From positions 135,802-199,801 of the forward strand of contig CAIJMI010000005.1 of NCBI GenBank assembly GCA_903821745.1: DNA of 64,000 nt, written 5' to 3'. Under the pieces are notes generated by a model that was given only the letters and a program-made list of their open reading frames with translations, did no database searches and had not been told where the DNA came from. Numbering within the stretch: position 1 is the stretch's first letter; each line of letters begins with the position of its first letter. Of this stretch, positions 17,178 through 47,886 are shown one piece after another. Both the position numbers and the translations under genes were made by a program. The DNA is from Candidatus Gottesmanbacteria bacterium. GTDB lineage: Bacteria; Patescibacteriota; Microgenomatia; UBA10105; UBA927.

Positions 17178-17182
17178 ACTAT

Positions 17183-18753: not shown

Positions 18754-18769
18754 AGGCAGGGTATAAAAA

Positions 18770-19588
18770 CTAATGTATAAACGAATTTTGACTATAGACA
18801 CTATAATCAAATATCGAAGCCGGCCAAGGATATTGTCGTTTTACAACAATTTTCCTCGTAACTCCACCGTCTGTTCTTCCGGTAGACGTAATTTCAACAC
18901 CCTGTTTTGGTAGCGTTATATCCGTTCCAACCGGTGCAACCGTAAATGTTGTATTGCCATAAAAAGGGCGAAGCCGAACTAAAAGGGGAATACCACCAGG
19001 AAGGGTAATATTTTGTCTATACACATTCATCACTGTTCCACAGCTACCATTAATTTCTGTTATAGAAGAAAAATTGTTTTGTGGGCGAGAAGCAATATCA
19101 GGATCATATGCACCGCGACTTACCATATAAACTCCGGCTAATTTATAGTACACAATCACTTCTATCGCTGGAGTCGGAAAACCACTAAGTGCTGGTGTCC
19201 AACAAATATTTAAGGACGTCCCTTTATAATAATCTGATTCATCAATTGCATTTAAACTCGTATGCCCAACTAACCAAACAGATTCCACTTTTCCTACATT
19301 CGTTGTGGGAAGCGTGTATGTTCCTGTGGTGCCGCCAATAATCGTTGACGTTGATGAATAACTTACTCCGGGAGCATAATTTTGCACATTAGTAACGGTC
19401 CCTGTTTTCAACGCCGCTTCAAGTCCTGCCTCAGCAGCACTAAACGCACGAGCAGATTCTTCTAAATTCCGACTCATAGAAACATCTGTAACACTCCGAC
19501 CAATAAGAGAAAGTGCAATGGTTATTGCAATGGATAACACCAAGACAGTAATAAGCAATACCTGTCCATGGACTCTATATGTTCTCAT
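18770..19588 (-). CDS. PilX-N-like type IV pilus minor component.
   Basis: N-terminus GQVLLITVLVLSIAITIALSLIGRS resembles the PilX_N domain. No canonical G|FTLxE site. Confidence 0.5.
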   Translation of the reverse strand: MRTYRVHGQVLLITVLVLSIAITIALSLIGRSVTDVSMSRNLEESARAFSAAEAGLEAALKTGTVTNVQNYAPGVSYSSTSTIIGGTTGTYTLPTTNVGKVESVWLVGHTSLNAIDESDYYKGTSLNICWTPALSGFPTPAIEVIVYYKLAGVYMVSRGAYDPDIASRPQNNFSSITEINGSCGTVMNVYRQNITLPGGIPLLVRLRPFYGNTTFTVAPVGTDITLPKQGVEITSTGRTDGGVTRKIVVKRQYPWPASIFDYSVYSQNSFIH

Positions 19589-19634
19589 ATATCTAGTATA
19601 CGGTTAAGCTTGGAAAAGACGCAAGTTCTTTTCA

Positions 19635-20222
19635 TCAATTATTCCGCGTTGTACCGGTCGACTGAAATGTCTCTGTCGCACCTTCAAATACTCCTGTTGT
19701 TGCATTTTGCTGTCGCAAACGAAAGAAGATGGAAACAGACGTTACTTTATCACCAATTGATGTACAGACAAATTGAAGCGCTGCATCCTCGGTATCAGCA
19801 ATACCGCATCCTGCATCTCCAGCGTTAGCAACTAACGTCACATTTCCGCTTGAAATAAATGAAGTTGTTGAAAGTGTTGCGCTTTCTGAAGCAATACGAA
19901 ATACACTTCGTGTTGTATATTGGGTATCCGCTGCACATCGAAAGGTAGTTTCAATACCATCAATATTAACAATCGTTAATTCTGATAGGATTGTACCGGT
20001 ACAGGGTGAGGAAACACCTCGAGCATTTTGAATCATTCGTCGTACGGTTTCCATCGTTGCTGTTCCAGTTTGTTTCATTTCTTTTAACTGTTCCGTCTTT
20101 GTATTCAACCGAACCGTTGTAAACAAAACCTGAGCTATAATAACTGAAACAAGAGAAAGGACACCTGCTGATACCAAGAGCTCAAGAAGCGTAAACCCGT
20201 GTTTCTGTTGACAGATGGTCAT
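19635..20222 (-). CDS. Prepilin-type minor pilin (PilW/FimT-like).
   Basis: Class III signal peptide MTICQQKHG|FTLLELLV. Confidence 0.7.
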   Translation of the reverse strand: MTICQQKHGFTLLELLVSAGVLSLVSVIIAQVLFTTVRLNTKTEQLKEMKQTGTATMETVRRMIQNARGVSSPCTGTILSELTIVNIDGIETTFRCAADTQYTTRSVFRIASESATLSTTSFISSGNVTLVANAGDAGCGIADTEDAALQFVCTSIGDKVTSVSIFFRLRQQNATTGVFEGATETFQSTGTTRNN

Positions 20223-20223
20223 A

Positions 20224-20643
20224 TTATTTCCAATTCGTTAATGTGGTTTGTAGTATCACTTCTTTTTGTATTCCAGATTCAATCCAGGAAACAGTTGATA
20301 TCACTACAACCGATTGCGTTCCCACGTCATAGGAATACGTTAAAAGTCTGGTATACCGATTATCTATTTGCGCGCAAGAATTAGGCAAAATAACACCTGC
20401 TGCATCGGCGCAAAATGTTCCAGAACGCGCAAACACTGCCCAACCTGCATCTCGCTCTTTTCTCGCAAGTTCCAAGCCTTCCTGTGCATACTGTGTGGCG
20501 TATGTTCGCAATCTACTTGTTTCTGCATATCGAAGCGATGCCGTTGTTCCAACAATAAGTCCAGTCACTAACAAAACAACAACACCAAGTGTTACTACTG
20601 ATTCAACAAGCGATTGTCCATGATACACCATCTGTCTCGTCAT
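20224..20643 (-). CDS. Prepilin-type minor pilin (PilV-like).
   Basis: Leader MTRQMVYHG|QSLVESVV with Glu at +5 and a hydrophobic helix. Confidence 0.55.
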   Translation of the reverse strand: MTRQMVYHGQSLVESVVTLGVVVLLVTGLIVGTTASLRYAETSRLRTYATQYAQEGLELARKERDAGWAVFARSGTFCADAAGVILPNSCAQIDNRYTRLLTYSYDVGTQSVVVISTVSWIESGIQKEVILQTTLTNWK

Positions 20644-21146
20644 AAGGTATTATAGTCACTAATGACTCCTGATTGCGTCACGCTAACGGAATATGTTCCA
20701 CCTTTACCGGAAAGCACAATAATCTGATCTCCCGTTAAATCAGTAACTCCCGTCACCGTAAAAAAACGAATAATGGGGTATGTTCCGCCAAATGTTATAC
20801 CTGCCGGTAAATACTGATACGAAATTTCATTACTGGTATCAATGGCAGTCCCATTTTGTGAACATACCGGCTTCGTGGTATAGCAAGGACCCTTTCCATT
20901 ACAATTCGCTAAAAAATCAATATCATAACCTTCCAATGTCGAATCATTAACACATAAGGCTGTCTTTTGACCGGACGTTGCTTTTGTTCGTGCAAGACGT
21001 AAATCCGTCCGAAGCGTCAATCCTGCTTGTTTTACCTTTTGCTTATCCGTATACAAATTGTAATTTAAAATAGTGAGGACAGAAATAATAAGAATAACAC
21101 CAATCACAACGATAAGTTCAATGAGCGTAAATCCTGTATGTTTCAT
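20640..21146 (-). CDS. Prepilin-type pilin.
   Basis: Leader MKHTG|FTLIELIVVIGV. Confidence 0.75.
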   Translation of the reverse strand: MKHTGFTLIELIVVIGVILIISVLTILNYNLYTDKQKVKQAGLTLRTDLRLARTKATSGQKTALCVNDSTLEGYDIDFLANCNGKGPCYTTKPVCSQNGTAIDTSNEISYQYLPAGITFGGTYPIIRFFTVTGVTDLTGDQIIVLSGKGGTYSVSVTQSGVISDYNTL

Positions 21147-21568
21147 GGATTTCTTCGACCGTAGTTATACCCACCTAAATCTGTTACCCCGCAGGTTGTA
21201 TCGGTTGTGGTAGATGGTTCCATAGAAGCAGCGACACAATAGCCATAATATTGACCATTATTTATATCTGTTGCAACATACAAATAGGGAAGTCCTTTCG
21301 GATCTGTTGGAATCGCTGGCATATAGGTATCAATAACTCCCGATAAATTTGTTGCTGTATCAATACTTCCAGGATTCACATTTGGATAATAACCAAAATC
21401 CGCGCGGTATAATTCGAGTGCCGATCGCATTTGTTCGATGTCACTTCGCCGTTTCGTGTTTCTCGCGTTTTTGTTAATACTGGTATACGACACAACACCA
21501 ATTGCCGTAAGTATAGCAATAATTGCAATAGCAATTAATATTTCCATGAGCGTAAATCCTTTTTTCAC
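21143..21568 (-). CDS. Type IV pilin, PilA/GspG-like.
   Basis: KKG|FTLMEILIAIAIIAILTAI...ARNTKRRSDI. Start moved to GTG 21568, which has AAAGGA 7 nt upstream, instead of ATG 21616 that overlaps the upstream pilin. Confidence 0.72.
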   Translation of the reverse strand: MKKGFTLMEILIAIAIIAILTAIGVVSYTSINKNARNTKRRSDIEQMRSALELYRADFGYYPNVNPGSIDTATNLSGVIDTYMPAIPTDPKGLPYLYVATDINNGQYYGYCVAASMEPSTTTDTTCGVTDLGGYNYGRRNP

Positions 21569-21581
21569 AGTATGTCCTTTC

Positions 21582-21986
21582 TTATTGCCGTTGATGAATA
21601 CAATAAAAATTCCCATCCGTTACTGTTCCGTCACAATTTGATGCACTATTTCCACTTTCCACTTCAAGAGTCGCGCAAACACAATAGGAGGTTGTATCAG
21701 GACAAGACATGGAATACCCTTCCTTCGTTTTTGGGTCAAACGGATAGTTGTCCGGCAAATACATTGTATCAATAACACATCCATCCCCCGATGGGTAGCT
21801 TTGTGTATCAGCAAAGGACTGCTCAATTCCTTGTTGGACAGCTTTCAAATCTGAGACTCTTCTGCTATCCCGCGCTTTTTTTTGCATAGTCGTATATGAA
21901 GCTGTTGCTATAGCCGTTAAAATTGCGATAAGTGCAATAACAATAAGAAGTTCGATGAGTGAGAATCCGTTTTTACGCGTTACCAT
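21582..21986 (-). CDS. Type IV pilin PilA-like with a Cys-rich C-terminal region.
   Basis: MVTRKNG|FSLIELLIVIALIAILTAIA... Start at Met 21986 just after the pilD stop. The long upstream extension of the ORF-track call overlaps pilD. Confidence 0.75.
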   Translation of the reverse strand: MVTRKNGFSLIELLIVIALIAILTAIATASYTTMQKKARDSRRVSDLKAVQQGIEQSFADTQSYPSGDGCVIDTMYLPDNYPFDPKTKEGYSMSCPDTTSYCVCATLEVESGNSASNCDGTVTDGNFYCIHQRQ

Positions 21987-22738
21987 AATGTATTCCATAT
22001 ACGGAGTATTGGTTCGCTCCATAATAGGGCCGTACCCATTCCAAAAATAAGGAATGGTCCGAACGGAATATGACTTTTCAGCTTCCGCATCCGCCCTAAA
22101 ATTAGTATGACACCCACTATTGCACCCGTCAAGAAAGCAGTGTAAAACGCAATAATTAAATTCGGATAACCACAAACTAAACCAATGAGGAACGCAAGAA
22201 GAATGTCTCCATCTCCCATAGCTTTTCCTCTTGAAAAAAACCAGAGTAAGTAAAAAAAACTCGCTCCAATGCAAGCAGGCAATAATGCAAATGAAACAAG
22301 ATGGAGAAGGGGAACAGTAAGAAATAACCGTAAGACAATACCGACCCCCGCAACATACAACATTTCAATAGGAATAAATTCTGTTTTTAAATCCACAACA
22401 AAAATAACGAGAAATGAGCAAAATAAAATCAGCGAAGAAAGAAAGAACAATGGGGAAGTATGGGCAGCATAAAGCAGCATAAACCCAACACCCGTAACTA
22501 GTTCAATAAGCGGATATTGAAGAGAAATAGGTTTACGGCAACATCGACTCTTTCCTCCTTGAATAACCCAGGAAACAAAAGGGATAAGTTCGTACCATAC
22601 AAGTGTGCGCTTACAATAATCACAATGGGAACGGCCATGGACAACATCCTGACCAACGGGTAAACGATCAATAAGAACGTTTAAAAACGATCCAATTGCA
22701 CAACCAAAAATAAAAATAATAATACTCAATTCATTCAT
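21980..22738 (-). CDS. pilD: Prepilin peptidase / N-methyltransferase (A24 family).
   Basis: N-terminal CxxC...CxxC zinc motif, polytopic membrane protein, and A24 family Asp residues. Confidence 0.9.
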   Translation of the reverse strand: MNELSIIIFIFGCAIGSFLNVLIDRLPVGQDVVHGRSHCDYCKRTLVWYELIPFVSWVIQGGKSRCCRKPISLQYPLIELVTGVGFMLLYAAHTSPLFFLSSLILFCSFLVIFVVDLKTEFIPIEMLYVAGVGIVLRLFLTVPLLHLVSFALLPACIGASFFYLLWFFSRGKAMGDGDILLAFLIGLVCGYPNLIIAFYTAFLTGAIVGVILILGRMRKLKSHIPFGPFLIFGMGTALLWSEPILRIWNTLW

Positions 22739-22767
22739 ATCATCATTATACGTATTTACAAAAACAA

Positions 22768-24807
22768 TTACTGTTGATCATTTTGTATATCCTTAGGGAA
22801 TTTTTTCTCATAAAATGCCGCAAAGGGATCCACATCTGTATCGCTTCCACAAACCTGCTTCCATTTATAATATTGCCGAAGTATCGCACGATCATATCCC
22901 CATTTTTTAACAAATAATGAAAGAAGGATCTTCGCATCTCCACAACGATTATGTTGATACAAAATAACAATAGGATACAAATACGATTCCGGAACCACAT
23001 TCAACTCTAACGCTAATGCCTTCTGCAACTCATTTTCTATATCTGAAAGTGATAAATCTGCCAATGCCATTTCCCGAACAACTATAGAGCGGTGTTGCCC
23101 GTACACTCGTAGGACATCCGATATCATTGGTATTTGTTTATGAAACGGAATGAGCACTGTTGGCGGAACAAATTGTTCCCAGAGTGGTAACGTATCCTGA
23201 ACGATTTTCTTATGATCCAACGAAACAGTTGAGTCAGGAGAATAGAGAAATAATAACCCATGCGCAGTCCATTGACCCGGTAACAAATTCGATTCGGTAT
23301 CGCAAACCAGAGGATGAGTTGCGATATTTGCAGTCACAAATGATTCTATCAATAACCGGTAATCCGAATTTTTTGGTTCAGGAACAATCAAATCAGGATA
23401 TTGCAAACGAAGAAACGATCGGTAATGGATATTTCCAAACCACCGGAAAAAAACGAACCGAATATCCGGCCTCTTTTTCTGAATAAAGTAAGTATAGTAC
23501 ATCGCATACGTCGATGTGTCTTCAAACAAAAATAAAATTCCATTTTGTGGCGTACTTTTTGCGATGTCGGTTGCAAGCTGTTCCATGGATGTATCGGTAC
23601 GTAACAAAGAAAACGCTTGATAATTATGTTTCCACTGAGAAAATCCGAGAAGGACAAAAAGAAGAAATACCACCAGCATATAAATACGTTTTTTCGTCTT
23701 CAACACCATCGCAATACCATATGCAACACACACGGCAAGTAATTGATACGGAACGATAAAAAACCGTTCAGTCGTTCCAATTTGATAATTCAACAGTTGC
23801 GTAAATCCTGCTATAAAGAAAAATAGTATCCAGCTACAGAGCGATACGGTTATAAAATCATACAGATGTGCTGCACGTTTCCGTAATACAAAAAGGCCAA
23901 GCAATATAAAAACGACGCCAACTAAAGAAAAATCGCGAACAATAAATTGAAAAAACGTATAGACATTCAATATTCTATTGAGAAACATTGGGGGACCGCC
24001 TGCTGTCGCCTGAAATGTCCCATATGATGCGCGCGTTACAAGTCGAATAAATCCTTCTCGTGTTGCTGCATGCTCGATATCAAATAATGTTCCACGAAAT
24101 GAAACAATGGGAGCATATATATAGGGAAGAAATCCTAATAAACCAAACAGAAATATTTTCCACCATGCATGAACAAGATGGGGAAGAACATCACGTCGTC
24201 TCCAAAAAATAAACATGATTGCTGGAAGGATAGTAAAAAGAATAGCGTGATGATGCGTCAATGCAATCCCTGTCCAAAAAGCTAAAAAGAGAAGTTGTGT
24301 TTGTTTCCCTTCTTCAAACCATGCAACCAGTTGATCTAACAATACGATGCTCATAAAACTATAGAGTCCGAACACCTCCTGCGATATAGCGTTGAGCCAA
24401 ACGGGACTGGTAAATCCAAATAAAACTGCTGCCACCGTGGAAGCAAAAAATGATGTTGTACATCGATAACATAGTCGCCACAAAAAATATAACGCCAGAG
24501 CGCTGGGGAGAGAAGAAAGAAAACAAGCGCGCCATGCAACAGTTCCCCATGAAAGTGCATGAATGAACAATCCGGATAAAAAGGTATAAAGTGGATAGCC
24601 AGGAGGGTGAGGGATACCCCACACATACGAGGCAAGTGTTACATCTCCTGCATCACCCCCATAAATACTATGCATCTGCATAGATATATATATCCATGCA
24701 AAACAGAAAGCTATAATGCTTGGAATACCATAAACCGCGAAAGTTACCAATCGCGGTTTAGGTTGAATCATTTGTTTCACAACGATTATTGAACACACCA
24801 GAAACAA
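22768..24807 (-). CDS. Large polytopic GT-C-fold membrane protein (DUF2723 / PMT-like glycosyltransferase family), embedded in the pilus locus.
   Basis: About 12 or more TM helices. The first-loop acidic motif (YGGDAGDV), then GIPHPPGYPLYTF, is typical of the DUF2723 / protein O-mannosyltransferase-like superfamily. Confidence 0.55.
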   Translation of the reverse strand: MFLVCSIIVVKQMIQPKPRLVTFAVYGIPSIIAFCFAWIYISMQMHSIYGGDAGDVTLASYVWGIPHPPGYPLYTFLSGLFIHALSWGTVAWRACFLSSLPSALALYFLWRLCYRCTTSFFASTVAAVLFGFTSPVWLNAISQEVFGLYSFMSIVLLDQLVAWFEEGKQTQLLFLAFWTGIALTHHHAILFTILPAIMFIFWRRRDVLPHLVHAWWKIFLFGLLGFLPYIYAPIVSFRGTLFDIEHAATREGFIRLVTRASYGTFQATAGGPPMFLNRILNVYTFFQFIVRDFSLVGVVFILLGLFVLRKRAAHLYDFITVSLCSWILFFFIAGFTQLLNYQIGTTERFFIVPYQLLAVCVAYGIAMVLKTKKRIYMLVVFLLFVLLGFSQWKHNYQAFSLLRTDTSMEQLATDIAKSTPQNGILFLFEDTSTYAMYYTYFIQKKRPDIRFVFFRWFGNIHYRSFLRLQYPDLIVPEPKNSDYRLLIESFVTANIATHPLVCDTESNLLPGQWTAHGLLFLYSPDSTVSLDHKKIVQDTLPLWEQFVPPTVLIPFHKQIPMISDVLRVYGQHRSIVVREMALADLSLSDIENELQKALALELNVVPESYLYPIVILYQHNRCGDAKILLSLFVKKWGYDRAILRQYYKWKQVCGSDTDVDPFAAFYEKKFPKDIQNDQQ

Positions 24808-25319
24808 TTAATACCTGTTGCATCTTTACTCTTACAAGCGGTTGCTCCTGACGTTACGGTATTTTCTACTCCTGACTGATCATATTTTGTTGCTGGATCA
24901 ACCTGGAATGATTTTGAACCTGGCTGATAACACACACGTACTTCCACTGACGACGTTGGAGATGAAGGCAGATAAGTAACAAACACTTTGTCAAGTTGCC
25001 CACTGTAAATCTCTTTAAAATTCGATTTCATTTCTCCTGCTGCCATCATGTTTGATAATGCAGTATTAATTGTTGCTGCACTAAGATTGGTGGAACTGAA
25101 CGTGGTTGTCTGATCTGTCCATGGCATTTTATTTGTTGTTGCGTAATACCGCAACACTGCCGTTTGAACTTGATTGACCAAATCTCGTGTTCCTGTATCT
25201 GTGCCCTTTTTCAATTGTTCAAATGGATCAAGTGCACCAATAAGACCGATAGCGAGAGCTCCTAATAAGGCGATAACGATAAGAAGCTCGACGAGCGTAA
25301 AACCTTTTTGTCTTTTCAT
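24786..25319 (-). CDS. Type IV pilin, candidate major pilin.
   Basis: Leader MKRQKG|FTLVELLIVIALLGALAI. Strongest SD in the locus (GGAGGTGATAACAAT-ATG). Own upstream intergenic region. C-terminal Cys pair (CKSKDATGINCFWC). Confidence 0.75.
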   Translation of the reverse strand: MKRQKGFTLVELLIVIALLGALAIGLIGALDPFEQLKKGTDTGTRDLVNQVQTAVLRYYATTNKMPWTDQTTTFSSTNLSAATINTALSNMMAAGEMKSNFKEIYSGQLDKVFVTYLPSSPTSSVEVRVCYQPGSKSFQVDPATKYDQSGVENTVTSGATACKSKDATGINCFWCVQ

Positions 25320-25398
25320 ATTGTTATCACCTCCTTACAATAAAATCTCTTCTCTTATTACTGTATAAGAACGTCTCTTCAATTGTCAACACAAATAC

Positions 25399-26607
25399 CT
25401 ATTTAAATTGCGATGTCAAATTATAAATTGGCGTTATGACCGATATGACAATAAAACCAATACCAACTCCCAAAACGACCATAATAATTGGTTCAATTGC
25501 CGTGGTGAGTCCTTTCACCATTCCTTCTGTTTCCATTTGAAAATATTTAGAAATTTTCAATAGAGTGTCATCCAATTTTCCTGTTTCTTCTCCAACCTTC
25601 ACCATTTGGGACACAATAGGTGGAAATTCTTTATGCGCAGCAAACATATCACCAAGTGGAAACCCTTTCTCAACCTTTTTTGCAATATCTTCAATAGCGT
25701 TTTGAAACAAAATATTATTCAGTGACCCTTTTAAAATACGTAGTGCATCAAGAATATGAATACCGGACCCAATTAACATCGAAAGTGTTCTCGTAAACTC
25801 AACAAGAATCAGCTTTTGCTGTAAAACACCAAAAATAGGAAGTTTTAATACGAGTGAATCCAACAAATATTGTCCGGATTCTGTCTTTTTCCACCGAGCA
25901 AACCCTAATGAAACACCACCGAGAAGAATAATCATGATCCACCATTTATATAAAATAAAGTTTGATAATCCGATTAACAATTTTGTAGACCAGGGAAGCT
26001 CAATACCAAAATCTTTGTATAAATCCGTAAGTCTTGGCATAACAACGATCATCATAATGATAACAACCGCTATCATACCAACAACGATAATGGCAGGATA
26101 AATCAATGCACCAACAACTTTATTCCGAAATTCCCGTTGTCCCTCAAGTGAATCGGCAAGCTGTACTAACACTTTATCCAGTTGTCCTGACGCCTCTCCA
26201 GCACGGACAAGCGAGATATAAATATTAGAAAAATATTGCGGATATTTGGATAAAGCATCGCCTAAATTTCCACCACCAACGATATTTCGTTCAATTTCCC
26301 CCAATACTTGTGCAAGTTGGGGATTTGGCGATTGGGTCTTTAAAATACCAAGTGAATCTGGAATAGAAAGACCCGATGTAACCATGGTCGATAACTGACG
26401 AGTAAAATTCACGATGTCAGAAAAACTCACTTTTTGCATTTTGGTAAATGCGGAAGATAAGGCTTTTTCCTGTGTTTGGGATAGAGAAACAACAAACAAC
26501 TGTTTTTCTTTTAAGAGTTTAATCGCTTGATCCTGACTACTTGCTTCAACCAACCCCGTTGCTTCTTTTCCATCCGGGGAGAATGCTTTGTATTTAAAAA
26601 ATGCCAT
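25399..26607 (-). CDS. pilC: Type IV pilus inner-membrane platform protein (GspF/PilC family).
   Basis: Two GspF repeats. Three-TM topology typical of PilC. Confidence 0.9.
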   Translation of the reverse strand: MAFFKYKAFSPDGKEATGLVEASSQDQAIKLLKEKQLFVVSLSQTQEKALSSAFTKMQKVSFSDIVNFTRQLSTMVTSGLSIPDSLGILKTQSPNPQLAQVLGEIERNIVGGGNLGDALSKYPQYFSNIYISLVRAGEASGQLDKVLVQLADSLEGQREFRNKVVGALIYPAIIVVGMIAVVIIMMIVVMPRLTDLYKDFGIELPWSTKLLIGLSNFILYKWWIMIILLGGVSLGFARWKKTESGQYLLDSLVLKLPIFGVLQQKLILVEFTRTLSMLIGSGIHILDALRILKGSLNNILFQNAIEDIAKKVEKGFPLGDMFAAHKEFPPIVSQMVKVGEETGKLDDTLLKISKYFQMETEGMVKGLTTAIEPIIMVVLGVGIGFIVISVITPIYNLTSQFK

Positions 26608-26613
26608 ATGAAA

Positions 26614-27669
26614 TTATCCTCGCTTCAGCAATCTACCAATGTCTTCTGGCCGAAGAGCATAGGCTGTTGCGACATCCACACTAATGTTCCCATCGTTTAC
26701 TGCCTTGGCAAGCGCCGCTTCCAAAGTCATCATACTAAATTCAGCAGATGTTTGTATCACGTTATCCAACTGATGTGTTTTCCCCTCACGGATGACTGAC
26801 CGAACAGCAGGTGTTGCAGTCATAACTTCACATACTGCAATTAACCCACCTTTAATTGCTGGAACCAATCGTTGGGAAATAACACCTTCAAGAACATTAG
26901 ATAACTGTAACCGTATCTGCTGTTGTTGATGCTCAGGGAATACATCGATAATACGATCAACGGTTTGGGCGGCTGAATTCGTATGAAGCGTTGCCAAGAC
27001 CAAATGTCCAGTTTCAGCAATGGTAATTGCAGCTGCAATAGTTTCATAATCACGCATTTCACCAATAAGCACAACATCCGGATCTTCACGGAGAACACTT
27101 CGAAGTGCAATGGACCAGGAATGGGTATCACCGTGCATCTCGCGCTGCGAAACGATCGACATTGCCGATGGATATATATATTCAACAGGATCTTCTATCG
27201 TTACAATATGTGATGCTTTCGTTTGATTAATGCGATCAATCATTGCAGCAAGAGTTGTTGATTTTCCTTGTCCTGTTGGACCGGTAACCAAAATCAGACC
27301 CTGACGAAGTTTCACAAAATCATGGAGCACTTCAGGAAGTCCTAACTCTTCAATGGAACGAATTTTTTCCGGAATATACCGAAATGCTCCTGCTGGAGTC
27401 CCACGCTGATTATATAAATTGACACGAAATCGCCCGGTTGGTGCAACATACGAAAAATCAACTTCTTTATTGGTCAAAAATAATTCTTTTTGTTCCTCCG
27501 AACAAATAGACAAAAGAAGCTCATGTACATCTGATTCCGAAAGTACGGCCTGTCCACTGATCATCTGTAATTTTCCCGATACACGAAGCATAGGGGGATA
27601 TCCAACGATCAGATGAATATCCGATGCTACAATACGCGATGCTTCTGCACATAATTCCTGCATGTTCAT
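26614..27669 (-). CDS. pilT: Twitching motility retraction ATPase PilT.
   Basis: Walker A GPTGQGKST, Asp box and His box of the PilT/GspE family. About 350 aa with no N-terminal GSPII_E_N domain. Confidence 0.9.
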   Translation of the reverse strand: MNMQELCAEASRIVASDIHLIVGYPPMLRVSGKLQMISGQAVLSESDVHELLLSICSEEQKELFLTNKEVDFSYVAPTGRFRVNLYNQRGTPAGAFRYIPEKIRSIEELGLPEVLHDFVKLRQGLILVTGPTGQGKSTTLAAMIDRINQTKASHIVTIEDPVEYIYPSAMSIVSQREMHGDTHSWSIALRSVLREDPDVVLIGEMRDYETIAAAITIAETGHLVLATLHTNSAAQTVDRIIDVFPEHQQQQIRLQLSNVLEGVISQRLVPAIKGGLIAVCEVMTATPAVRSVIREGKTHQLDNVIQTSAEFSMMTLEAALAKAVNDGNISVDVATAYALRPEDIGRLLKRG

Positions 27670-27680
27670 AATTGCTTCTC

Positions 27681-29402
27681 CTAATCCTGCGCAACGCGCA
27701 ACACTTCTTCAATTGATGTTAGGCCTTCCAATGCTTTCATATAGCCATCTTGTTTCATGGTTATCATTCCTTCAGAAATTGCTTGTGTTTCAATATCTTT
27801 CATGGTCGCACGAGACAAAGTCAACCGACTAATGGCATCTGTGACGGCAAATACTTCAAATATACCAAGTCTTCCATGATACCCTGTGCCTGCACAGGTA
27901 GAACAGGACACATCACTAACCGTTCCTTTTCCGCGATACAATTTTATTGGTTTATCTTTTTGAAGCAGGGGTCCCAACACTGCACGGACATCATCTTGTA
28001 TCGGCTGTTCTGGAATATATTCTTCTTTACAGGTTTCGCAAATTTTTCGTGCAATACGTTGACCAACAACTGCGTTAAGTGCCGATGCGATAAGGAATGG
28101 CTCAGCCCCAAGATCTATAAGCCGTGGAATTGCACCTGAGGCGTTATTTGTGTGCAGCGTTGAAAACACCAAATGACCGGTAAGTGCAGCCTGTACAGCC
28201 AGTTCCGTTGTTTCCTGATCCCTAATTTCTCCAACAAGAATAATATTTGGATCCTGACGCAAAAATGATCGTAAACCCGTTGCAAACGTTAATCCTGCTG
28301 GTGCGTTCACTTGGACTTGATTCACCCCTGCAATCTGATACTCAACCGGATCTTCCAGCGTCATTATATTAACCCGAGCATTATTGAGTTTATTCAGCAC
28401 AGAATACAATGTCGTCGTTTTTCCGGAACCAGTTGGTCCGGTCACAAGAATAATGCCGTGTGGCCGGGTAATGGATGTTTCCAAATTTTTTAATGCAAGA
28501 CCGCGAAGCCCAAGTTCCGGCAAGGAGGGAACCCCGCCAGATTTTTTCAAAAGCCGCATAACGATTTTTTCTCCAAACACTGTGGGAAGAGAGGATACAC
28601 GAAGATCAACCTCTTCATCTCCCATTTTAAAATTAAACCGTCCATCCTGTGGAATACGCCGTTCATCAATTTTCATATCGCCTAAAATTTTAATACGCGA
28701 TATGACGGCTTCATGGAGTCGTCTTGGAAGCAAGAGTCGTTCTTGCAAAATCCCATCCACCCGATACCGAACACGCGTTTCCGCATCCTGTGGTTCAATA
28801 TGAACATCTGATGCACGAAGCCGGATTGCCTGCTCAAGAATAGCAGAAACGATTTGTGCAATAGGAGCTTCCCGAATCACTTCATTTAAATGTCCCGCTT
28901 CATAAGTCTTTATATCAGACGGTGCTGTTTCTTTGAGCGCTGCAGTAACATCTTCTCCCAAATGCTGTGTGTACAAATTATTAATTGCCGTAAGTATCTT
29001 TTCTTTTACTGCCATATACGCAGTAATCGTTTTGTTTGTTTTCTTCTCCAAAAAATCAATAATCTGCGCATCGAGTGGATCTGCCATTGCAACTAAGAGC
29101 GTATTCGTCTTAGTATCAAATTCAAACGGCACAAGAATATATTTTCTTGCAACCGCCTCTGGAACATAGGTGATCAATTCCGGAGAAAAAGCGAGGGAGG
29201 AAACGTCAGCAAAGGGAATATTGAGGACTGCTGCCCGCGCACGAAGGATATCTTCTTCTTTTACTAATCGTTTTTGAAGCAGCAATGATTCGACGGATTC
29301 ACCAACATTTAAGGATTGAAGCAGTATTTCATCTGCCTGTTCCTTCGAAAGGTTTTTATTTTGAACCAGCTTATTTAATAATTCTTGGGCAGCGGCAGGC
29401 AT
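27681..29402 (-). CDS. pilB: Type IV pilus assembly ATPase PilB (GspE family).
   Basis: N-terminal GSPII_E_N domain, Walker A GPTGSGKTT, and a tetracysteine motif (CETC...CSTC). Confidence 0.92.
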   Translation of the reverse strand: MPAAAQELLNKLVQNKNLSKEQADEILLQSLNVGESVESLLLQKRLVKEEDILRARAAVLNIPFADVSSLAFSPELITYVPEAVARKYILVPFEFDTKTNTLLVAMADPLDAQIIDFLEKKTNKTITAYMAVKEKILTAINNLYTQHLGEDVTAALKETAPSDIKTYEAGHLNEVIREAPIAQIVSAILEQAIRLRASDVHIEPQDAETRVRYRVDGILQERLLLPRRLHEAVISRIKILGDMKIDERRIPQDGRFNFKMGDEEVDLRVSSLPTVFGEKIVMRLLKKSGGVPSLPELGLRGLALKNLETSITRPHGIILVTGPTGSGKTTTLYSVLNKLNNARVNIMTLEDPVEYQIAGVNQVQVNAPAGLTFATGLRSFLRQDPNIILVGEIRDQETTELAVQAALTGHLVFSTLHTNNASGAIPRLIDLGAEPFLIASALNAVVGQRIARKICETCKEEYIPEQPIQDDVRAVLGPLLQKDKPIKLYRGKGTVSDVSCSTCAGTGYHGRLGIFEVFAVTDAISRLTLSRATMKDIETQAISEGMITMKQDGYMKALEGLTSIEEVLRVAQD

Positions 29403-40701: not shown

Positions 40702-41736
40702 TTAATGTCTGTGAAACCGCTCATGAATTGACCGAAGTTGTGGATTAGTAATGTGGGTATATATTTGCGTTGTTGAGATATTTTTGTGTCCTAACATCTC
40801 CTGAATAGCACGAAGATCAGCTCCTGCAGACAACAGATCCGTCGCAAAACTGTGCCGCAGTCCATGTGGTGTAATCTTAATCGGCAGCCGTGCTTTCTTG
40901 ACATATTTTTCAACCAACCGTTCAACGCTTCGGGCAGAAAGCCTGATACTTTCACCATGTGGATCATGCTCGTCCGGCTTCTTTCCAGAATACCTTATAA
41001 ATAAAGGATCCAAATCATCATCACGCGTTTCCAAATACCGTTTTGTCCAATCAACCGATGAGTCAGATAAAAAGACAACCCGGGCCCGTCGGCCCTTTCC
41101 AATAACGCCAAATTCCTTTCGTTCCAGATTAATCTGATCTCGATTAAGCTTCGTAAGTTCTGAAACACGGAGCCCTGTTGAAAACAACATTTCAAGAATT
41201 GCTTTGTCCCGAAGTCCTTCATTGGTAGAAATTTCCGGCATATTCAACAGTTGTTCCACCTGATCCCGTTCCAAGAATTTGATGCTTCTGCTTTCTGCCT
41301 TTGGGAGGTCAATTTTATCTGCAGACACTGTGCCAACATCTCGTTTTGCGCAATATTTGAGGAATGATCGGACAGCGATCAGATGGTAATTCTGCGTCAC
41401 GCGTTTGAGACTCATATTATGCTCATCCACGTATCTCGACAAAAACAACCGATATTGTCGGATTGACTCGGATGTAACTGCAGAAACCGGAATTGTTTTT
41501 CGTTTGTCCGATTGTTCTTTTACTGCTTCCTCCGATTTTTTATCTATCAAAAGGGGAGTCCCAACAAGATAATCCAAAAACCGGTTCAAATAATGACCAT
41601 AGTTACGGATTGTCAGCGGTGAAACATTCCGCTCAATTTCTAAATATTCTAAAAATTCATTAATAAGTTGTGTAAGCGGCATAGTAATATACGACGTCTT
41701 TACAATTATTGTTGTACGACGTCTGACAAAAAGCAA
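40702..41736 (-). CDS. Xer-like tyrosine site-specific recombinase.
   Basis: N-terminal SAM-like core-binding domain. Catalytic residues R (GLRVSEL)...K...HGLRHSFAT...RAIQEMLGH...Y (TQIYTH). The start may be the internal Met at 41682. Confidence 0.88.
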   Translation of the reverse strand: MLFVRRRTTIIVKTSYITMPLTQLINEFLEYLEIERNVSPLTIRNYGHYLNRFLDYLVGTPLLIDKKSEEAVKEQSDKRKTIPVSAVTSESIRQYRLFLSRYVDEHNMSLKRVTQNYHLIAVRSFLKYCAKRDVGTVSADKIDLPKAESRSIKFLERDQVEQLLNMPEISTNEGLRDKAILEMLFSTGLRVSELTKLNRDQINLERKEFGVIGKGRRARVVFLSDSSVDWTKRYLETRDDDLDPLFIRYSGKKPDEHDPHGESIRLSARSVERLVEKYVKKARLPIKITPHGLRHSFATDLLSAGADLRAIQEMLGHKNISTTQIYTHITNPQLRSIHERFHRH

Positions 41737-42576
41737 TATATCAAATCACGGTACGTATATATTCATTATGATTTCTATACTATTTTGTATTTCCATTGAG
41801 TACTAGTTTTAGCTCTTTCGCATCGTTACAGACGACCATGGTATGCTGACAACAATAGGCACGTTTTTACGTTGTACCCATCACCATTGAAGAAGATAAA
41901 CACCCGCTAAAGGAAGCTATTTTTGAGCCTCTGTAGTGACCTAGAAATTGAATATCCTTGGTGCAATAAGTGTTAGGTCATCAACTTTTGATTTAGCGCG
42001 TCCAAACCGCACATTTCACGCAATATATATAGAGATTTCACAAAATACGGGCAGGGAAGTCAAATACCAAAAATAGCCTCAACGGCCAACCAAGGGAAAT
42101 ACCGTATATGTTTACCTAAACAATGGGTAATTGTTGTTTTGAAATAGAAATAAAAATAAGAAAACATTGATGACAAACAATGGGGATAAAATACCACTTC
42201 TCCCAAGTTCTGAAGCTACCGGACGTCGTAAAAGTATTATTGTGCGTCATTAGCCATTATGCTTCCCACCATGGGTTATCCATCAAAAACGCCAGGTATC
42301 GTTAACCAACTAACATAGACCTTGGGTCTATGGAGATATCCTGTGGTTCTTCCTAAACCTCCGGATACCTCTCAACGAACCCATAAGAACTTTCTTTAAG
42401 AAACCCTAGGTGTAATATCCAGAGAAGAACAAGACCTCTCTCTTTTGTAAGATGCTCACTTCCTAACACGGTCATACGTCTTATTCGTCCTCGAGATAAG
42501 CGTCAACAAACGGTAGAAAAACGTGCACTCCTTAGACACTGACATAAGAACCTCGTTCGGGTTTTTTATAGTTTAC

Positions 42577-43060
42577 AGTTAGCGCGTATTAATGCGCTAA
42601 ACTGTTAATTTCGAGGCTAAATGTTTTTATATTTAACAACACGGATAACAAGAGAAATAGAGCGTCAGAATGCGCTGTCTTTAAGCTTTCGAGGCCACTT
42701 TCACCCCCTAGGGAGATACACGCCTAAAACAAAGAATTGAACGTCGGAATATGTTTTATTTAGCGCGTAATAACGCTCCAAATACACATTTTCGAAGCTA
42801 AATACAACAAATATCGCATGTCTTACAAAGAGAGAGTTGGAGCGTTAATACGTGCTAAACGTAGTAATTCAAGGCTACCGTAATACGAATTGAGTACAAT
42901 TATTAGCAGTCAGCAATCAAGAGCTGATAGTATAGGCCTATTTAGAGCGTATTAATGCGCTAAACTGTTAATATCGAGGCTAAAAACAGAATACTCTGAC
43001 GCTATCGAGAGTAGAGGTTTAGAGCGTACTGATGCTCTATATAAGCAATTCTGAAGCTGC
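42577..43060. repeat. Diverged higher-order tandem repeat. Six ~41-nt units (R1 42577-42621, R2 42659-42698, R3 42758-42803, R4 42839-42879, R5 42941-42984, R6 43018-43060). Degenerate remnants continue to ~43185.
   Basis: Consensus TTTAGAGCGTATTAATGCGCTAAACTGTTAATATCGAGGCTAAA. R1 and R5 are near-identical; the others are about 60-75 percent identical. Spacers alternate ~37 and ~65 nt, so odd and even units each recur every 180-182 bp. Confidence 0.75.
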
Positions 43061-43136
43061 ACGCTACGCGAGATTGAAGCTACTTGAAGCTATATAAGAG
43101 CAGCGTGAAAAGTATCTTATAGTATCGTGAAATTAA

Positions 43137-43145
43137 TTATCCACA
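43137..43145 (+). promoter_or_regulatory. Perfect DnaA-box nonamer TTATCCACA.
   Basis: Exact match to the consensus DnaA box. A 7/9 match (TTATCCATC) lies at 42276-42284. Confidence 0.3.
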
Positions 43146-43224
43146 TCAACTATAGGATACATGCCTTTCGAAGCTAACAACTATATCAAACTATATCATG
43201 CCCCTCTTCCCTATCTCCCGCCAT

Positions 43225-44073
43225 TTAGATACCACGCCATCTGGTTGTAAACAATGCTGCAATAAAAACAAAAATGCAAACAAGGAAAAATCCGATCACT
43301 GTTTTTTTATACAACTTATTTGCTAAGTATTCCTGTCCCATCCCGACCGTGCTGTAAAAGACTGAGGACATTAACAAGGCAATCATGGCAGTGGGCACCG
43401 GCCAGAACGATAACACCCAAGCAAGCTCTCCCAACACAACAGATAAGGCAATGCTCATTGCAATAATTCGCCTACTCACCTGCCCCGTTAATTCCATAAG
43501 CCAGAGTGACGGAAAAATATGCAAGAAACTTAATCCGGAAATAATAATGGTCGTTCCAACAGGATATGCACGAAATGATATGACCGTCAGGGTCAGGAGA
43601 TAAAACGTAAAAATCGTCAAAAGAAAACCAACGGATCTGGCAGCCCGAAGTAAGGCAATAGTCCTATTTGCTGCAACATTATAAATATTTTCTGTCAGTA
43701 AAAATGCATAGAGACCGATTGCATATAATGCAGCAATTGGAATACGGGTTAACCACCGTGGGGGTAAAAGAAAATAAAACAAGGCAACTGCTGCGCTATA
43801 TAAAGTTGGTGGAATAAGGAGTGTCATCCACTCTATTCCTCCTAAATCTTCTCGAAGAGCAAATGCCGCACCAAGGTACGTCATAGCTGCAAGAAGGACA
43901 ACCATTGGATAACGAACAACATCAACTGGTGCAAGTTGGGTAAGCATGAGGCCAAGCGTTAAAACAAAGGTAACTAAAACAAACTGCTGCCGCTTCGTAA
44001 GTTGTATGTGGCGTTCCCATCGTTTCCATCGCTTTTCGATCCAAACTAAAAATTTATGGATTGCTGTTTTCAT
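43225..44073 (-). CDS. Polytopic membrane protein, hypothetical.
   Basis: About 8 TM helices. No motif recognised. Confidence 0.5.
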   Translation of the reverse strand: MKTAIHKFLVWIEKRWKRWERHIQLTKRQQFVLVTFVLTLGLMLTQLAPVDVVRYPMVVLLAAMTYLGAAFALREDLGGIEWMTLLIPPTLYSAAVALFYFLLPPRWLTRIPIAALYAIGLYAFLLTENIYNVAANRTIALLRAARSVGFLLTIFTFYLLTLTVISFRAYPVGTTIIISGLSFLHIFPSLWLMELTGQVSRRIIAMSIALSVVLGELAWVLSFWPVPTAMIALLMSSVFYSTVGMGQEYLANKLYKKTVIGFFLVCIFVFIAALFTTRWRGI

Positions 44074-45568: not shown

Positions 45569-46528
45569 TTATTTTTCAGGCAAAAACCGTCGTTCTATAC
45601 CCTTCCCTAACCGAACAACCAAATCAGCCCGTTCCCGTGTTTGCCGTTCAACAAGTGAACAACCAAACTGAGAACGAAAAAAATTAGCAGTCAGAGATGC
45701 TATCTGTGGTTTCATTCCGGACACTTCGCAAAGCCCTTCATACGGATTATCATCATTACCAACGGAAACCACAAAGCCGCCACTAAGTTCAATTTCGCGG
45801 GCAATCCGTTGCGCTATCCCTGGCGTTCCTGTAGTGTTGTAGAGAGCTATGCGCATGCCCTCCTGACGAAGTGGTGTATCTTCTAAATTATTCCCTACAA
45901 TAGCATCATACTTTTCGCTGTCAAACCGCCATACGGATGTTTGGTCTGGAAGTTCAAATGCTCCTGCAATCTGCCCCTGACGAAAATCAAAAACCGTCGT
46001 CTTGTCAAAACCCATGATTTGAAATTTTTTCCAAACATATGGAACATCTCCAAGAGGAATATTCGTTTTTCCAGTCAACACCATGTGGAGACAATTTGAA
46101 AATGAAAATATTCCTTTTAATTGAAAAACAATCTCGTCTGACGATCCGGTCCAATTACTAAACGTATTTGCACTATGCCATTGGATTGGTGTTGCAAGCG
46201 CATCTTCAAGTGACGACCGAAATAGAATCCCTTTTCGAGCATCCATGCTATCAAGTTTCCATAACGCATCAAGCCCATACCATCCATATCCTTTGATGGC
46301 ATTAATCTGCATGGTTTCTGGAAGGATGAAAACGGCAAAGCGTTGACGTTCAGATTCCCATGAGACAACGATTGTTGGGTTACCAGGAAGCACCAAACCA
46401 AGGCGCCCCCGCGGGGGTTTGGAAGAAAAAAGGAAAAAACAACTACCCAAAAGAAACAGGGCAGTAATACAAAAAATCAAAACGCGAGATCCCCCACGTT
46501 TTTTCCTCCAATCTTGCCGATTCACCAT
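45569..46528 (-). CDS. Membrane-anchored protein with a C-terminal LytR_C-like domain.
   Basis: N-terminal TM. The C-terminal block RIALYNTTGTPGIAQRIAREIELSGGFVVSVGND resembles the LytR_C domain. Confidence 0.5.
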   Translation of the reverse strand: MVNRQDWRKKRGGSRVLIFCITALFLLGSCFFLFSSKPPRGRLGLVLPGNPTIVVSWESERQRFAVFILPETMQINAIKGYGWYGLDALWKLDSMDARKGILFRSSLEDALATPIQWHSANTFSNWTGSSDEIVFQLKGIFSFSNCLHMVLTGKTNIPLGDVPYVWKKFQIMGFDKTTVFDFRQGQIAGAFELPDQTSVWRFDSEKYDAIVGNNLEDTPLRQEGMRIALYNTTGTPGIAQRIAREIELSGGFVVSVGNDDNPYEGLCEVSGMKPQIASLTANFFRSQFGCSLVERQTRERADLVVRLGKGIERRFLPEK

Positions 46529-46665
46529 TCTTTTTTTCCTTTTTTGATAATTTCAACTTGTGGTAATTGCCATGGACTGTTTCCCATCTGGCGCATTGCT
46601 TTCTTTTCAAGCTCTGATTTTTTTATCTTTTTCTTTTCATGTGTACGAAAATCACTGGAACCCAT
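46522..46665 (-). CDS. Small Lys-rich protein (47 aa), translationally coupled to the downstream LytR_C gene.
   Basis: ATG at 46665 preceded by AGGAGGAG with 6-nt spacing. Its TGA overlaps the ATG of the 45569..46528 gene (ATGGTGA). Below the ORF-track length cutoff. Confidence 0.35.
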   Translation of the reverse strand: MGSSDFRTHEKKKIKKSELEKKAMRQMGNSPWQLPQVEIIKKGKKEW

Positions 46666-46707
46666 AGATGTCTCCTCCTATGTTAAAAAATTACTACAAT
46701 ATATCTA

Positions 46708-47886
46708 TTATACGGTCATCCATTGCGATTTCAATTGCTGATACTTCCCCTTCGCAATTGCACCTCGAATGGAAAAAACGAGGTTGTTAATAAAGGCAAT
46801 ATTATGAATCGTTGCCAGACGATATGCCAAAAGTTCCCGTACATGAAATAAATGATACAAATAGCCTTTGGAATAATGCGTGCAGGTATAACACTGACAG
46901 TTAGAATCAATTGGATTTGTGTCCTCTGCGTACTCTTTTTTTGTAATATCGAAAACAAAATTCGCTTTGACATTTTTAATAAAAAGATGTCCCATACGAG
47001 CAAGCCTCGTTGCCTGTACACAATCAAACGTATCTACCCCTGCGTCAACAAGTGTAAAAATATCATCAATCTCTCCAACCCCAAGCAAATGTCGCGGTTT
47101 GTTATCAGGCAGTAAAGGCATCACCCATGAAAGCACACTGGCCATATCTTTTTTACTTTCCCCAACTGCTACTCCTCCTATTGCAAATCCATCAAAGGGA
47201 AGACGAGTAATAAATTTGGTTGATGCAATTCGTAAATCTTCAAACACACTTCCCTGAATAGATCCATACAAGGCCTGATACAAGTCATATTTTTTGGCAA
47301 GTGCAGTATGTGCATCTAAACTTCGTTTTGCCCATGCATGCGTTCTATCCATGGACTTCTCCGCCTGTTTTTTCGTTACAGGATACGGAGTGCAATCGTC
47401 AAATGCAATATGAATATCCGATCCGAGGTCCCACTGATACTGCATGGAATTTTCTGCAGTAAATACATGTTCTTTTCCATCCCAATGAGAATTGAATGTC
47501 ACACCATCATCAGTAATGCGAACTAAACTCGCTTCTCCCTGTCCATCTTCATTCTTGCGGGCAAACCGCTTTGCACCAAGGGAAAATACCTGAAATCCGC
47601 CGCTGTCAGTAATAAGTGGCCGATCCCAATGCATAAATGCATGTAATCCTCCAAATCTCTTAATAACAGCAATCCCTGGACGCATAACCATGTGATAGGT
47701 ATTGACAAAAAAAAGATGCACATCGAGATCCTGCAGGTCTTCCGGAGTAAGAGATTTAACCGTTGCCTGGGTGCCCACAGGCACAAATGCGGGTGTTTGA
47801 ATATCCCCGTGTGGCGTGTGAATAACCCCAGTTCGAGCTTGGCTTTTTTGATCTTTTGCGGTTACTTTAAAGCTAAAATCGTGCAT
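46708..47886 (-). CDS. tgt: Queuine tRNA-ribosyltransferase.
   Basis: Tgt TIM-barrel motifs (TPAFVPVGTQATVK, LLGVGEIDDIF). Zinc site CxCxxC...H (CQCYTCTHYSKGYLYHL). Confidence 0.92.
   Translation of the reverse strand: MHDFSFKVTAKDQKSQARTGVIHTPHGDIQTPAFVPVGTQATVKSLTPEDLQDLDVHLFFVNTYHMVMRPGIAVIKRFGGLHAFMHWDRPLITDSGGFQVFSLGAKRFARKNEDGQGEASLVRITDDGVTFNSHWDGKEHVFTAENSMQYQWDLGSDIHIAFDDCTPYPVTKKQAEKSMDRTHAWAKRSLDAHTALAKKYDLYQALYGSIQGSVFEDLRIASTKFITRLPFDGFAIGGVAVGESKKDMASVLSWVMPLLPDNKPRHLLGVGEIDDIFTLVDAGVDTFDCVQATRLARMGHLFIKNVKANFVFDITKKEYAEDTNPIDSNCQCYTCTHYSKGYLYHLFHVRELLAYRLATIHNIAFINNLVFSIRGAIAKGKYQQLKSQWMTV

Follow-up and report, generated by a model that had tools for sequence, protein, structure and literature searches.

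A diverged repeat array beside a DnaA box in a putative Microgenomates-wide non-coding module

The genomes of the Candidate Phyla Radiation (CPR), or Patescibacteria, measure about 1 Mb and are densely coding. What does a long stretch of repeated, non-coding DNA do in one of them? The question is raised by 64,000 nucleotides (nt) of a Candidatus Gottesmanbacteria genome (assembly GCA_903821745.1, contig CAIJMI010000005.1, positions 135,802 to 199,801 of the forward strand), referred to here as the window and numbered from its first letter. An array of six diverged repeats lies there within a 1488-bp gap free of open reading frames (ORFs) at 41737-43224, the largest of the window, all other gaps being 363 bp or shorter. 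A first-pass annotation, made from the sequence alone, had described the array and named three candidates for it: a structured-RNA repeat, an iteron- or centromere-like DNA array, or a string of recombinase target sites. The second of these fits best. Our tentative reading, held with slightly less than even confidence, is that the six units, beside a DnaA box, may make up an iteron- or centromere-like array on double-stranded DNA in which each unit is a composite site for protein binding. Comparison with related loci (given L numbers below) indicates that the array is part of a non-coding module of about 1.3 kb, found in single copy, Microgenomates-wide and specific to that group.

The array and its orthologues

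A repeat search of the window finds one family in six 43-nt copies, all on the + strand, spanning 42579-43061 with start-to-start distances of 78, 103, 77, 105 and 77 nt. The copies are as follows.

R1, 42579-42621, + strand: near-perfect 22-bp palindrome TTAGCGCGTATTAATGCGCTAA, then box 2 TTTCGAGGCTAAA
R2, 42657-42699, + strand: GCGTCAGAAT type, then the conserved CTTTCACCCCC; orthologues recognisable across genera
R3, 42760-42802, + strand: unit found by repeat search and unit profile
R4, 42837-42879, + strand: unit found by repeat search and unit profile
R5, 42942-42984, + strand: unit with 95% identity to R1
R6, 43019-43061, + strand: unit whose arms AGAGC/GCTCT differ in a compensatory way from the AGCGC/GCGCT of R1

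The six repeats are genuine, and their motifs occur more often than chance predicts. The palindrome pattern has 4 matches in the window where 0.00 are expected, TAGMGCGT has 8 against 1.37 (6 of the 8 within 41994-43027), and GARGCTA has 16 against 6.9 (9 of the 16 within 41913-43176). The first-pass annotation had placed six units of one orientation within 2 nt of the starts found here, and the two-unit super-period of about 181 nt that it described holds, odd units recurring every 181-182 nt and even units every 180-182 nt. Identity to R1 ranges from 60 to 95%; R5, which had been called nearly identical, differs by 2 mismatches. Tandem Repeats Finder, suggested as a check, misses the array on account of how far its copies have diverged and of their interspersed layout; it lists only small 10-mers at 43074-43092 and 43179-43198, and the period is confirmed by the repeat search instead. 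The degenerate remnants that had been seen as far as about 43185 proved genuine: the second half of the unit recurs there in additional copies, as TTGAAGCTA at 43074 and 43084 and as TTTCGAAGCTAA at 43166. No further copies of the unit were found elsewhere in the window.

When the window is aligned as three blocks, pairwise identity is 79% for odd units and 52% for even units, with 39% for short spacers, 33% for long spacers and 27% expected by chance; therefore the units are conserved and the spacers are not. The spacers after odd units had been thought homologous, a claim that did not survive this comparison: only a purine-rich AGAG stretch before the even units is shared, and the 33-39% identity of the spacers is to be set against the chance value.

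The array can be followed into other genomes through its right-hand neighbour.

DUF5656 membrane-protein gene, 43225-44073, - strand: Pfam PF18900; the module always has the 3' end of this gene on its right

All the contigs compared that carry DUF5656 homologues of 59-85% identity have a non-coding interval of 1.3-1.7 kb at the same place, and in each of these intervals a profile built on the six units picks up 3-8 copies with the same orientation and alternating spacing. A degenerate unit pattern, TAGMGCGT-N10-TAAA-N8-TTNNRRGCTA (37 bits), was then scanned against collections of one genome per species, metagenome contigs and viral contigs. It gave 20 stretches in 20 different assemblies in the first, 40 stretches in the second and 0 in the third. 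Wherever the contig is long enough, a DUF5656 homologue comes next after the match, on the opposite strand, and this adjacency holds in Roizmanbacteria, where the protein is only about 30% identical. The search for other copies of the unit within a genome, a further check that had been proposed, found one stretch per assembly, and the locus is single on contigs of 1.02, 0.80 and 0.46 Mb. On JBAQFJ010000001.1, of 1.02 Mb, it lies at 301-314 kb.

Across genera, R1 and R2 can each be recognised together with their flanks, and the array therefore predates these lineages. R1 orthologues are present in all Gottesmanbacteria-type loci, with a 9-bp hairpin kept. Later unit pairs vary in number, and copies range from 1 to 8. 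L006 carries two blocks of 184 nt that are almost the same, spacers included, which points to block duplication as an ongoing process. The earlier proposal that a block was amplified and then diverged is thus upheld in part: the duplication in L006 speaks for it, but the orthology of R1 and R2 across genera means that the array did not arise in a recent local event. The same locus has an odd feature, in that at R3 and R5 the place of the short spacer is taken by a GC-rich palindrome of 35 nt (CCTGCC...GGCAGG), which splits box 2 as GAG|GCTAAA, with the 78-nt spacing kept. Many independent assemblies end in the module or at its edge in L002 (at about 41990 of the window), L006, L042, L047, L049, L053, L065, L068 and L074; apparently its repeats or its copy-number variation break short-read assemblies here.

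Motifs, spacing and flanking elements

What is kept in the units can be judged from 72, and later 149, distinct units, and what is kept in their spacing from 50 distinct arrays. The consensus of the units is ATTTAGAGCGTAATAACGCTCTAAAC-N8-TTTCGAGGCTAAAT, with the information mostly in TAGNGCGT, CTAAA and TTNGARGCTA, and unit length is 43-47 nt across loci. Spacing is bimodal, at 75-79 nt (n=51, 40 of them at 77-78) and 103-106 nt (n=24). The core of box 2, GARGCTA, occurs inside modules at 2.44/kb on the + strand and 0.65/kb inverted, compared with 0.09-0.11/kb in the flanks, so that it is about 27 times as frequent there in sense and about 6 times as frequent when inverted; Roizmanbacteria-type loci carry inverted copies on both sides of the DnaA box.

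Structure leaves no comparable mark. In the inner palindrome arms of the 149 units, Watson-Crick pairing is not above the expectation for independent columns, and mismatches are balanced between G.T (50) and A.C (57). Per-unit folds are inconsistent and no covariation is seen in 72 or in 149 units, so a unit hairpin was rejected as an RNA element. Spacers fold like their shuffles on either strand (mean z-score -0.1 to -0.5; 32 short and 24 long spacers), and hairpins in the spacers were likewise rejected, with z-scores of about 0. Covariation supports a structure only in the hairpin of R1 and in the terminator-like hairpin T1 described below; it is weak in the upstream element E1 and absent from units and spacers. 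Selection appears, from these alignments, to act on the motifs and their spacing and not on the sequence of the spacers. Conserved motifs, fixed spacing, a motif used in either orientation and the lack of a structure signal fit a protein-bound double-stranded-DNA array and fit poorly with a structured RNA, the first of the three early candidates, for which Rfam gave no match.

The alignment of orthologous loci, also recommended at the outset, contains invariant blocks of 9 to 17 nt and finds the unit motifs, T1, the DnaA box and a pair of 10-mers conserved. Past the array, the distal block of the window holds the following.

Two extra box 2 copies, TTGAAGCTAC and TTGAAGCTAT, 43074-43092, + strand: without the left half of the unit; GAAGCTA in relatives
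Two direct CGTGAAA motifs, 43104-43111 and 43126-43133, no strand given: 22 nt apart, around TATAGT; invariant in the distal alignment of 10 loci, and in further loci too
Perfect DnaA box TTATCCACA, 43137-43145, + strand: the sole perfect box in 64 kb
Extra box 2 copy TTTCGAAGCTAAC, 43165-43177, + strand: an insertion specific to the lineage of the window
Tandem 10-mer AACTATATCA, two copies, 43179-43198, no strand given: invariant; on the - strand, two TGATATAGT extended -10-like boxes
Pyrimidine-rich block of CACTTCCCTNTCTCCC type, 43199-43224, no strand given: conserved; abuts the DUF5656 stop codon

All 10 of the 10 aligned loci have the DnaA box without variation, and 33 of 40 distinct arrays have a perfect box, of one orientation throughout, no more than 450 nt past their last unit. 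CTATAG motifs are also conserved in the distal block. A hairpin around the DnaA box (GTATCTTATAGT/ACTATAGGATAC) was rejected, being conserved only in the closest relatives. Two departures from the usual layout can be seen in other loci. In L030 (about 1406-1440) the DnaA box sits within a palindrome, ATCCAC-ATTA-GTGGAT, of two inverted DnaA-box-like sites, and the ACTATAGG motif and one 10-mer are missing. In the Roizmanbacteria-type loci L017, L027 and L029, 3-5 tandem AT-rich repeats of about 10 nt (e.g., TATAAACTT / AAAGTTNATA) stand between the DnaA box and CTATAG/TTCACG; they resemble the repeats of DNA-unwinding elements.

Two further elements lie on the other side of the array.

E1, conserved non-coding element, 41903-42303, + strand: upstream of the array
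T1, intrinsic-terminator-like hairpin GAACC-TCGTTC-GGGTT (GTTC loop) with T-run, 42548-42567, + strand: 10 nt before R1

At 41994 E1 has a left box resembling that of the units, TAGCGCGT. Box 2 appears in it inverted at 42074 (TAGCCTC) and in direct orientation, with CGTCGTAAAAGTATTATTGTGCG after it, at 42208-42250; the ATTTCAC motif occurs twice. It is 81% identical to L004 and 71-77% identical to L008, L010 and L014, and in most loci, those of Roizmanbacteria among them, a nhmmer profile detects it ahead of the array. Its tblastx scores are equal in all six frames; therefore it is not coding. As RNA, the consensus of its 400 nt folds weakly (-17 kcal/mol), and E1 was rejected as a structured RNA on that ground; its predicted helices show a few one-sided changes that preserve G-U pairs. 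The blocks of E1 that do not vary are CCCCTGTAGTGACCTAGAA, GCACATTTCACGCAAT, GGCAGGGAAGTC, AAAATAGCCTCA and GACGTCGTAAAAGTATTATTGTGCGAC. The start of the distal block has a paralogue in the 3' part of E1 (pattern GAAGCTA-N10-CGTNAAAAGTAT), ACCACTTCTCCC at 42192-42205 resembles the pyrimidine-rich block beside the DUF5656 stop, and CACTTCYCC-type direct repeats stand on both flanks of the module. T1 contains GTTCGGGT, invariant in the locus alignment. In 20 distinct orthologues, 41 G.T pairs but just 3 A.C pairs were counted in the stem, whose pair 5 covaries (GC/AT/TA/CG); therefore T1 is an RNA-type terminator hairpin on the + strand. Its place before R1 is consistent with a shielding of the array from incoming transcription.

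Scanned ORFs of the window encode housekeeping functions (aminoacyl-tRNA synthetases, gyrA/gyrB, dnaB, ssb, type IV pilus genes and others). No cas, parA/parB, rep, dnaA or dnaN gene came up in the 64 kb when most ORFs of 90 amino acids (aa) or more were scanned with Pfam, some pilus-cluster ORFs at 17-21.6 kb being left out. Rfam reports only tRNA in the window at the gathering threshold and nothing in the gap, where a search at E <=10 brought no credible match and two chance matches only; ARAGORN finds no transfer-messenger RNA. The left neighbour varies, being a gene for an Xer-type recombinase in Gottesmanbacteria and, in Roizmanbacteria-type loci, a convergent IMPase-like gene without Xer. 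Two other features of the neighbourhood were recorded: a cluster for a type IV pilus or type II secretion (T2SS)-like system on the - strand at 16428-29402 (PilM, prepilin peptidase, N_methyl pilin, T2SSF and two T2SSE ATPases), and an ORF of 47-48 aa at about 46528-46708 (L001 7409-7552) between TGT and LytR_C, which is called in every syntenic relative and has no Pfam match.

Weighing the explanations

How might such a module work? In our tentative reading, each unit would be a composite site with three TTTAG/CTAAA pentamers, namely TTTAGNGCGT, CTAAAC about 19 bp on and TTNGARGCTAAA about 20 bp further. The sites would be set at fixed distances of 77-78 and 103-106 bp, in a module whose order in the window is E1, T1, the array, the CGTGAAA motifs, the DnaA box and the invariant 10-mer pair. 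One or more sequence-specific proteins on the units, with DnaA at its box, could then assemble a higher-order nucleoprotein complex akin to an iteron array, a plasmid centromere or a datA/DARS-type locus, at neither the replication origin nor the terminus. The DnaA box, a motif of double-stranded DNA, is itself part of the module and speaks for this reading. The motifs, the constrained spacing, the single copy, the conservation and the lack of a skew switch or an RNA-structure signal are observed, and from them we infer the binding of protein, the role of DnaA and the biological function.

Several points weigh against this reading. No binding protein was identified, and no par, rep or dnaA gene was found among the scanned ORFs of the 64 kb. 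The DnaA box is a single consensus box and not a cluster, the sole box with 1 mismatch in the module (42181) not being conserved. At 77-78 bp, neighbouring units stand about 7.4 helical turns apart and so out of integral phase. R1 orthologues, alone among the units, keep a real hairpin of 9-13 bp with two compensatory changes, and the split box 2 of L006 with its kept spacing hints at looping-out at the nucleic-acid level. There are also promoter-like signals. The invariant TGATATAGT occurs twice on the - strand, about 30-45 nt after the DUF5656 stop, and looks like a promoter element; TATAGT and TATAGG boxes stand on either side of the DnaA box; and a simple promoter scanner calls promoter-like (sigma-70-like) sites in L008 and L012. 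The edges of the module are probably transcribed, judging by such signals, which leaves room for a role of RNA.

The main rival, which we consider somewhat unlikely, is that the module comprises one or more non-coding RNA genes. With promoter-like boxes and T1 at the edges, a role at the RNA level therefore stays the foremost alternative. In one version, a - strand RNA would run from the TGATATAGT/TATAGT boxes near the DnaA box through the units; in the other, the RNA would come from the + strand. Its single-stranded UUUAG... and GARGCUA repeats would offer a multivalent platform or sponge to an RNA-binding protein, in the manner of CsrB/RsmZ, and DnaA would control the promoter. Host promoters are of the TGnTATAAT type, as upstream of tRNA-Leu, and the invariant tandem TGATATAGT matches this extended -10 type. 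The sigma-70-like calls in L008 and L012 favour the idea too, as does the position of the DnaA box 5-10 nt after TATAGT on the - strand in L008 and L033. T1, with its excess of G.T over A.C pairs, suggests that at least E1 is probably transcribed, and the compensatory changes in the R1 hairpin and a few G-U-preserving changes in the predicted helices of E1 point the same way.

Set against these, spacers show no surplus folding and units no covariation on either strand, the consensus structure of E1 is very weak and Rfam has no match. Box 2 is enriched in both orientations, which is unexpected for an RNA motif, and spacer lengths are kept despite the spacers being unstructured and unconserved. 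The promoter that version 1 needs was rejected as well: between its -35 (TTGATA) and -10 (TATAGT) boxes on the - strand the distance varies from 10 to 29 nt across species, and no terminator for a - strand transcript was found. Promoters within the units fared no better: for sigma-70 no -10 having T at position 6 is constantly placed, and readings by eye as sigma-28, extracytoplasmic function (ECF) or sigma-54 promoters were rejected.

If the units are a DNA array, as we tentatively hold, could they be a chromosomal or iteron-type origin? A perfect and invariant DnaA box, short AT-rich direct repeats beside it (in the window and in Roizmanbacteria-type loci), an array of direct repeats and one locus per genome would all suit oriC, which we nevertheless judge very unlikely. 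At third codon positions the + strand has a negative GC skew (GC3 skew), from -0.06 to -0.29, in all gene blocks to the left and right of the locus, irrespective of gene strand. Cumulative skew falls monotonically through the locus with no extremum at 42-43 kb, and a breakpoint model yields only +/-0.026 around a constant -0.07. In 10 other genomes both flanks are negative as well (mean skew -0.075 left, -0.113 right). There is no switch in skew, and therefore no bidirectional origin or terminus here and hence no dif site; the whole window is on one replichore, with the - strand leading. Genes to the right of the locus point towards it, dnaA, dnaN and rep were not found in the 64 kb, there is one DnaA box only, and the units measure 43-47 nt at intervals of 78/104 nt, not the 17-22 bp of phased iterons. 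The oriC reading is therefore largely refuted, mostly by skew. In passing, the orientation of the units relative to fork direction is the same in the 10 other genomes, and the window has no canonical parS within 3 mismatches.

The proposal that the units are target sites of the adjacent recombinase, dif-like or as a string of recombination sites, was the third early candidate.

Xer-type tyrosine recombinase gene, 40702-41736, - strand: Pfam Phage_integrase; left neighbour of the module in Gottesmanbacteria only

The gene lies about 850 nt to the left of the units, and R1 is a palindrome of 8-6-8 to 11-6-11 type, two points in its favour. The association is local, however. An AP-endonuclease gene parts Xer from the module in more distant Gottesmanbacteria, and Roizmanbacteria-type loci have the IMPase-like gene instead. 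Six direct sites would delete each other, palindrome arms are not maintained in units other than R1, and without a skew switch there is no terminus. R1 also lacks what we take, going by published dif consensus sequences, to be the ATAA-N6-TTAT core of dif. We regard this explanation as highly improbable. The intervening gene is AP_endonuc_2, a xylose-isomerase-like TIM barrel (L012 7945-8865, L013 7733-8644); it is deleted in the lineage of the window, and L011 keeps only fused N- and C-terminal remnants (intergenic region 90-220).

This loss, with the remnant in L011, might suggest that the repeats are functionless: a decayed gene, a selfish element like the repetitive extragenic palindromes (REP) or miniature inverted-repeat transposable elements (MITE), or the relic of an integrated element bounded by ACCACTTCYCCC direct repeats. 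The CACTTCYCC-type repeats that flank the module and a copy number of 1 to 8 could be read in this way. The chance of it is slight. Motifs and spacing are kept across lineages in which the flanking protein is about 30% identical, blocks of 9 to 17 nt are invariant and the locus is single-copy, not dispersed. Coding signal is absent: tblastx scores of the region are equal in six frames and tblastn finds no AP_endonuc_2 trace in the window, in agreement with the earlier argument against a decayed gene. A small ORF after R1, GAGGCTAAATG, was rejected as a gene, its frame and length varying between units and species and the ORF being absent in L011 and L012. An origin in a phage or plasmid was rejected on the 0 viral matches.

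Finally, a degenerate or orphan array of clustered regularly interspaced short palindromic repeats (CRISPR) is refuted, as had been anticipated: although the layout of repeat and spacer and the length of the repeat are CRISPR-like, the repeats are just 60-95% identical (149 distinct units being equally diverged), two spacer lengths alternate, individual units and their order are orthologous across genera, unlike an array that acquires spacers, no cas gene is found among scanned ORFs of the 64 kb and viral contigs have no match.

Relation to known systems and meaning

Which known system does the module resemble most? It shares with the iteron-type plasmid origins (pSC101, P1 oriR, RK2 oriV, F oriS) direct repeats at a kept spacing by a DnaA box with short AT-rich repeats, and, as proposed here, it would likewise be a cis-acting DNA site for a multi-protein complex. 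Unlike 17-22-bp iterons in helical phase, its units are composites of 43-47 nt at 78/104-nt intervals, and the module is chromosomal, vertically inherited and without a rep gene or a skew switch. With sopC of the F plasmid and other plasmid centromeres (P1 parS, R1 parC) it has in common repeated units of about 43 bp with an inverted repeat, and TTTCAC-type heptamers like those of P1 Box A or of parS half-sites flank the array; the TTTAGC half-site resembles what we take to be the KorB operator TTTAGCSGCTAAA, which serves as a lead only. In contrast to sopC, the units are parted by spacers of 35 and 60 nt and are not contiguous, and their arms are unmaintained in most units; parA/parB are not nearby and the window has no canonical parS.

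The datA, DARS1 and DARS2 loci of Escherichia coli are also unique intergenic loci away from oriC, with a consensus DnaA box, sites for other proteins (putative here) and conserved synteny. They have at least 3 DnaA boxes and defined IHF/Fis sites, whereas the module has a single box, a different family of repeats and no sequence relationship to them. Sponge RNAs such as CsrB/RsmZ and tandem small-RNA arrays (NsiR1, LhrC) likewise hold many copies of a short motif at semi-regular spacing in a non-coding region, with promoter-like elements near; the module differs in having no hairpin-presented motifs, no promoter or terminator per unit, no covariation and a motif in both orientations. A CRISPR array is alike in its interspersed layout and differs in that here the repeats are diverged, the spacers orthologous and of two alternating lengths, and cas genes lacking. 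REP or bacterial interspersed mosaic elements (BIME) and MITE are dispersed, in contrast to one stretch per assembly and no further copy in the window. The module thus falls outside the iteron, the centromere and the datA families, each by the features named above.

The module matches no Rfam family, and no description of it was found in the literature. Searches returned nothing on DUF5656, on Gottesmanbacteria with GC skew, or on Microgenomates with repeats or non-coding RNA; papers on oriC in Patescibacteria were covered at the level of titles and abstracts, and the Roizmanbacteria genome paper contains no origin, skew or dnaA terms. To our knowledge, nothing is known of cis-acting chromosome sites (centromeres, DnaA-titration sites, large non-coding RNAs) in these uncultured bacteria.

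Kept in single copy at one site in at least 2 candidate phyla of Microgenomates, and having blocks as long as 17 nt that do not vary, a non-coding module of 1.3-1.5 kb almost certainly has a function. More tentatively still than the DNA-array reading itself, we suggest that it may be an undescribed, Microgenomates-wide chromosome-maintenance element. This would be a non-origin nucleoprotein locus linked to a DnaA box, either a non-canonical centromere or a datA/DARS-like regulator of initiation, with a new family of composite repeats and a lineage-specific binder; alternatively, it may be a new long non-coding RNA under DnaA control. The module apparently also accounts for the frequent assembly breaks at this locus in these genomes. 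Its units and DnaA box provide a sequence-defined handle, and the module as a whole a lineage marker.

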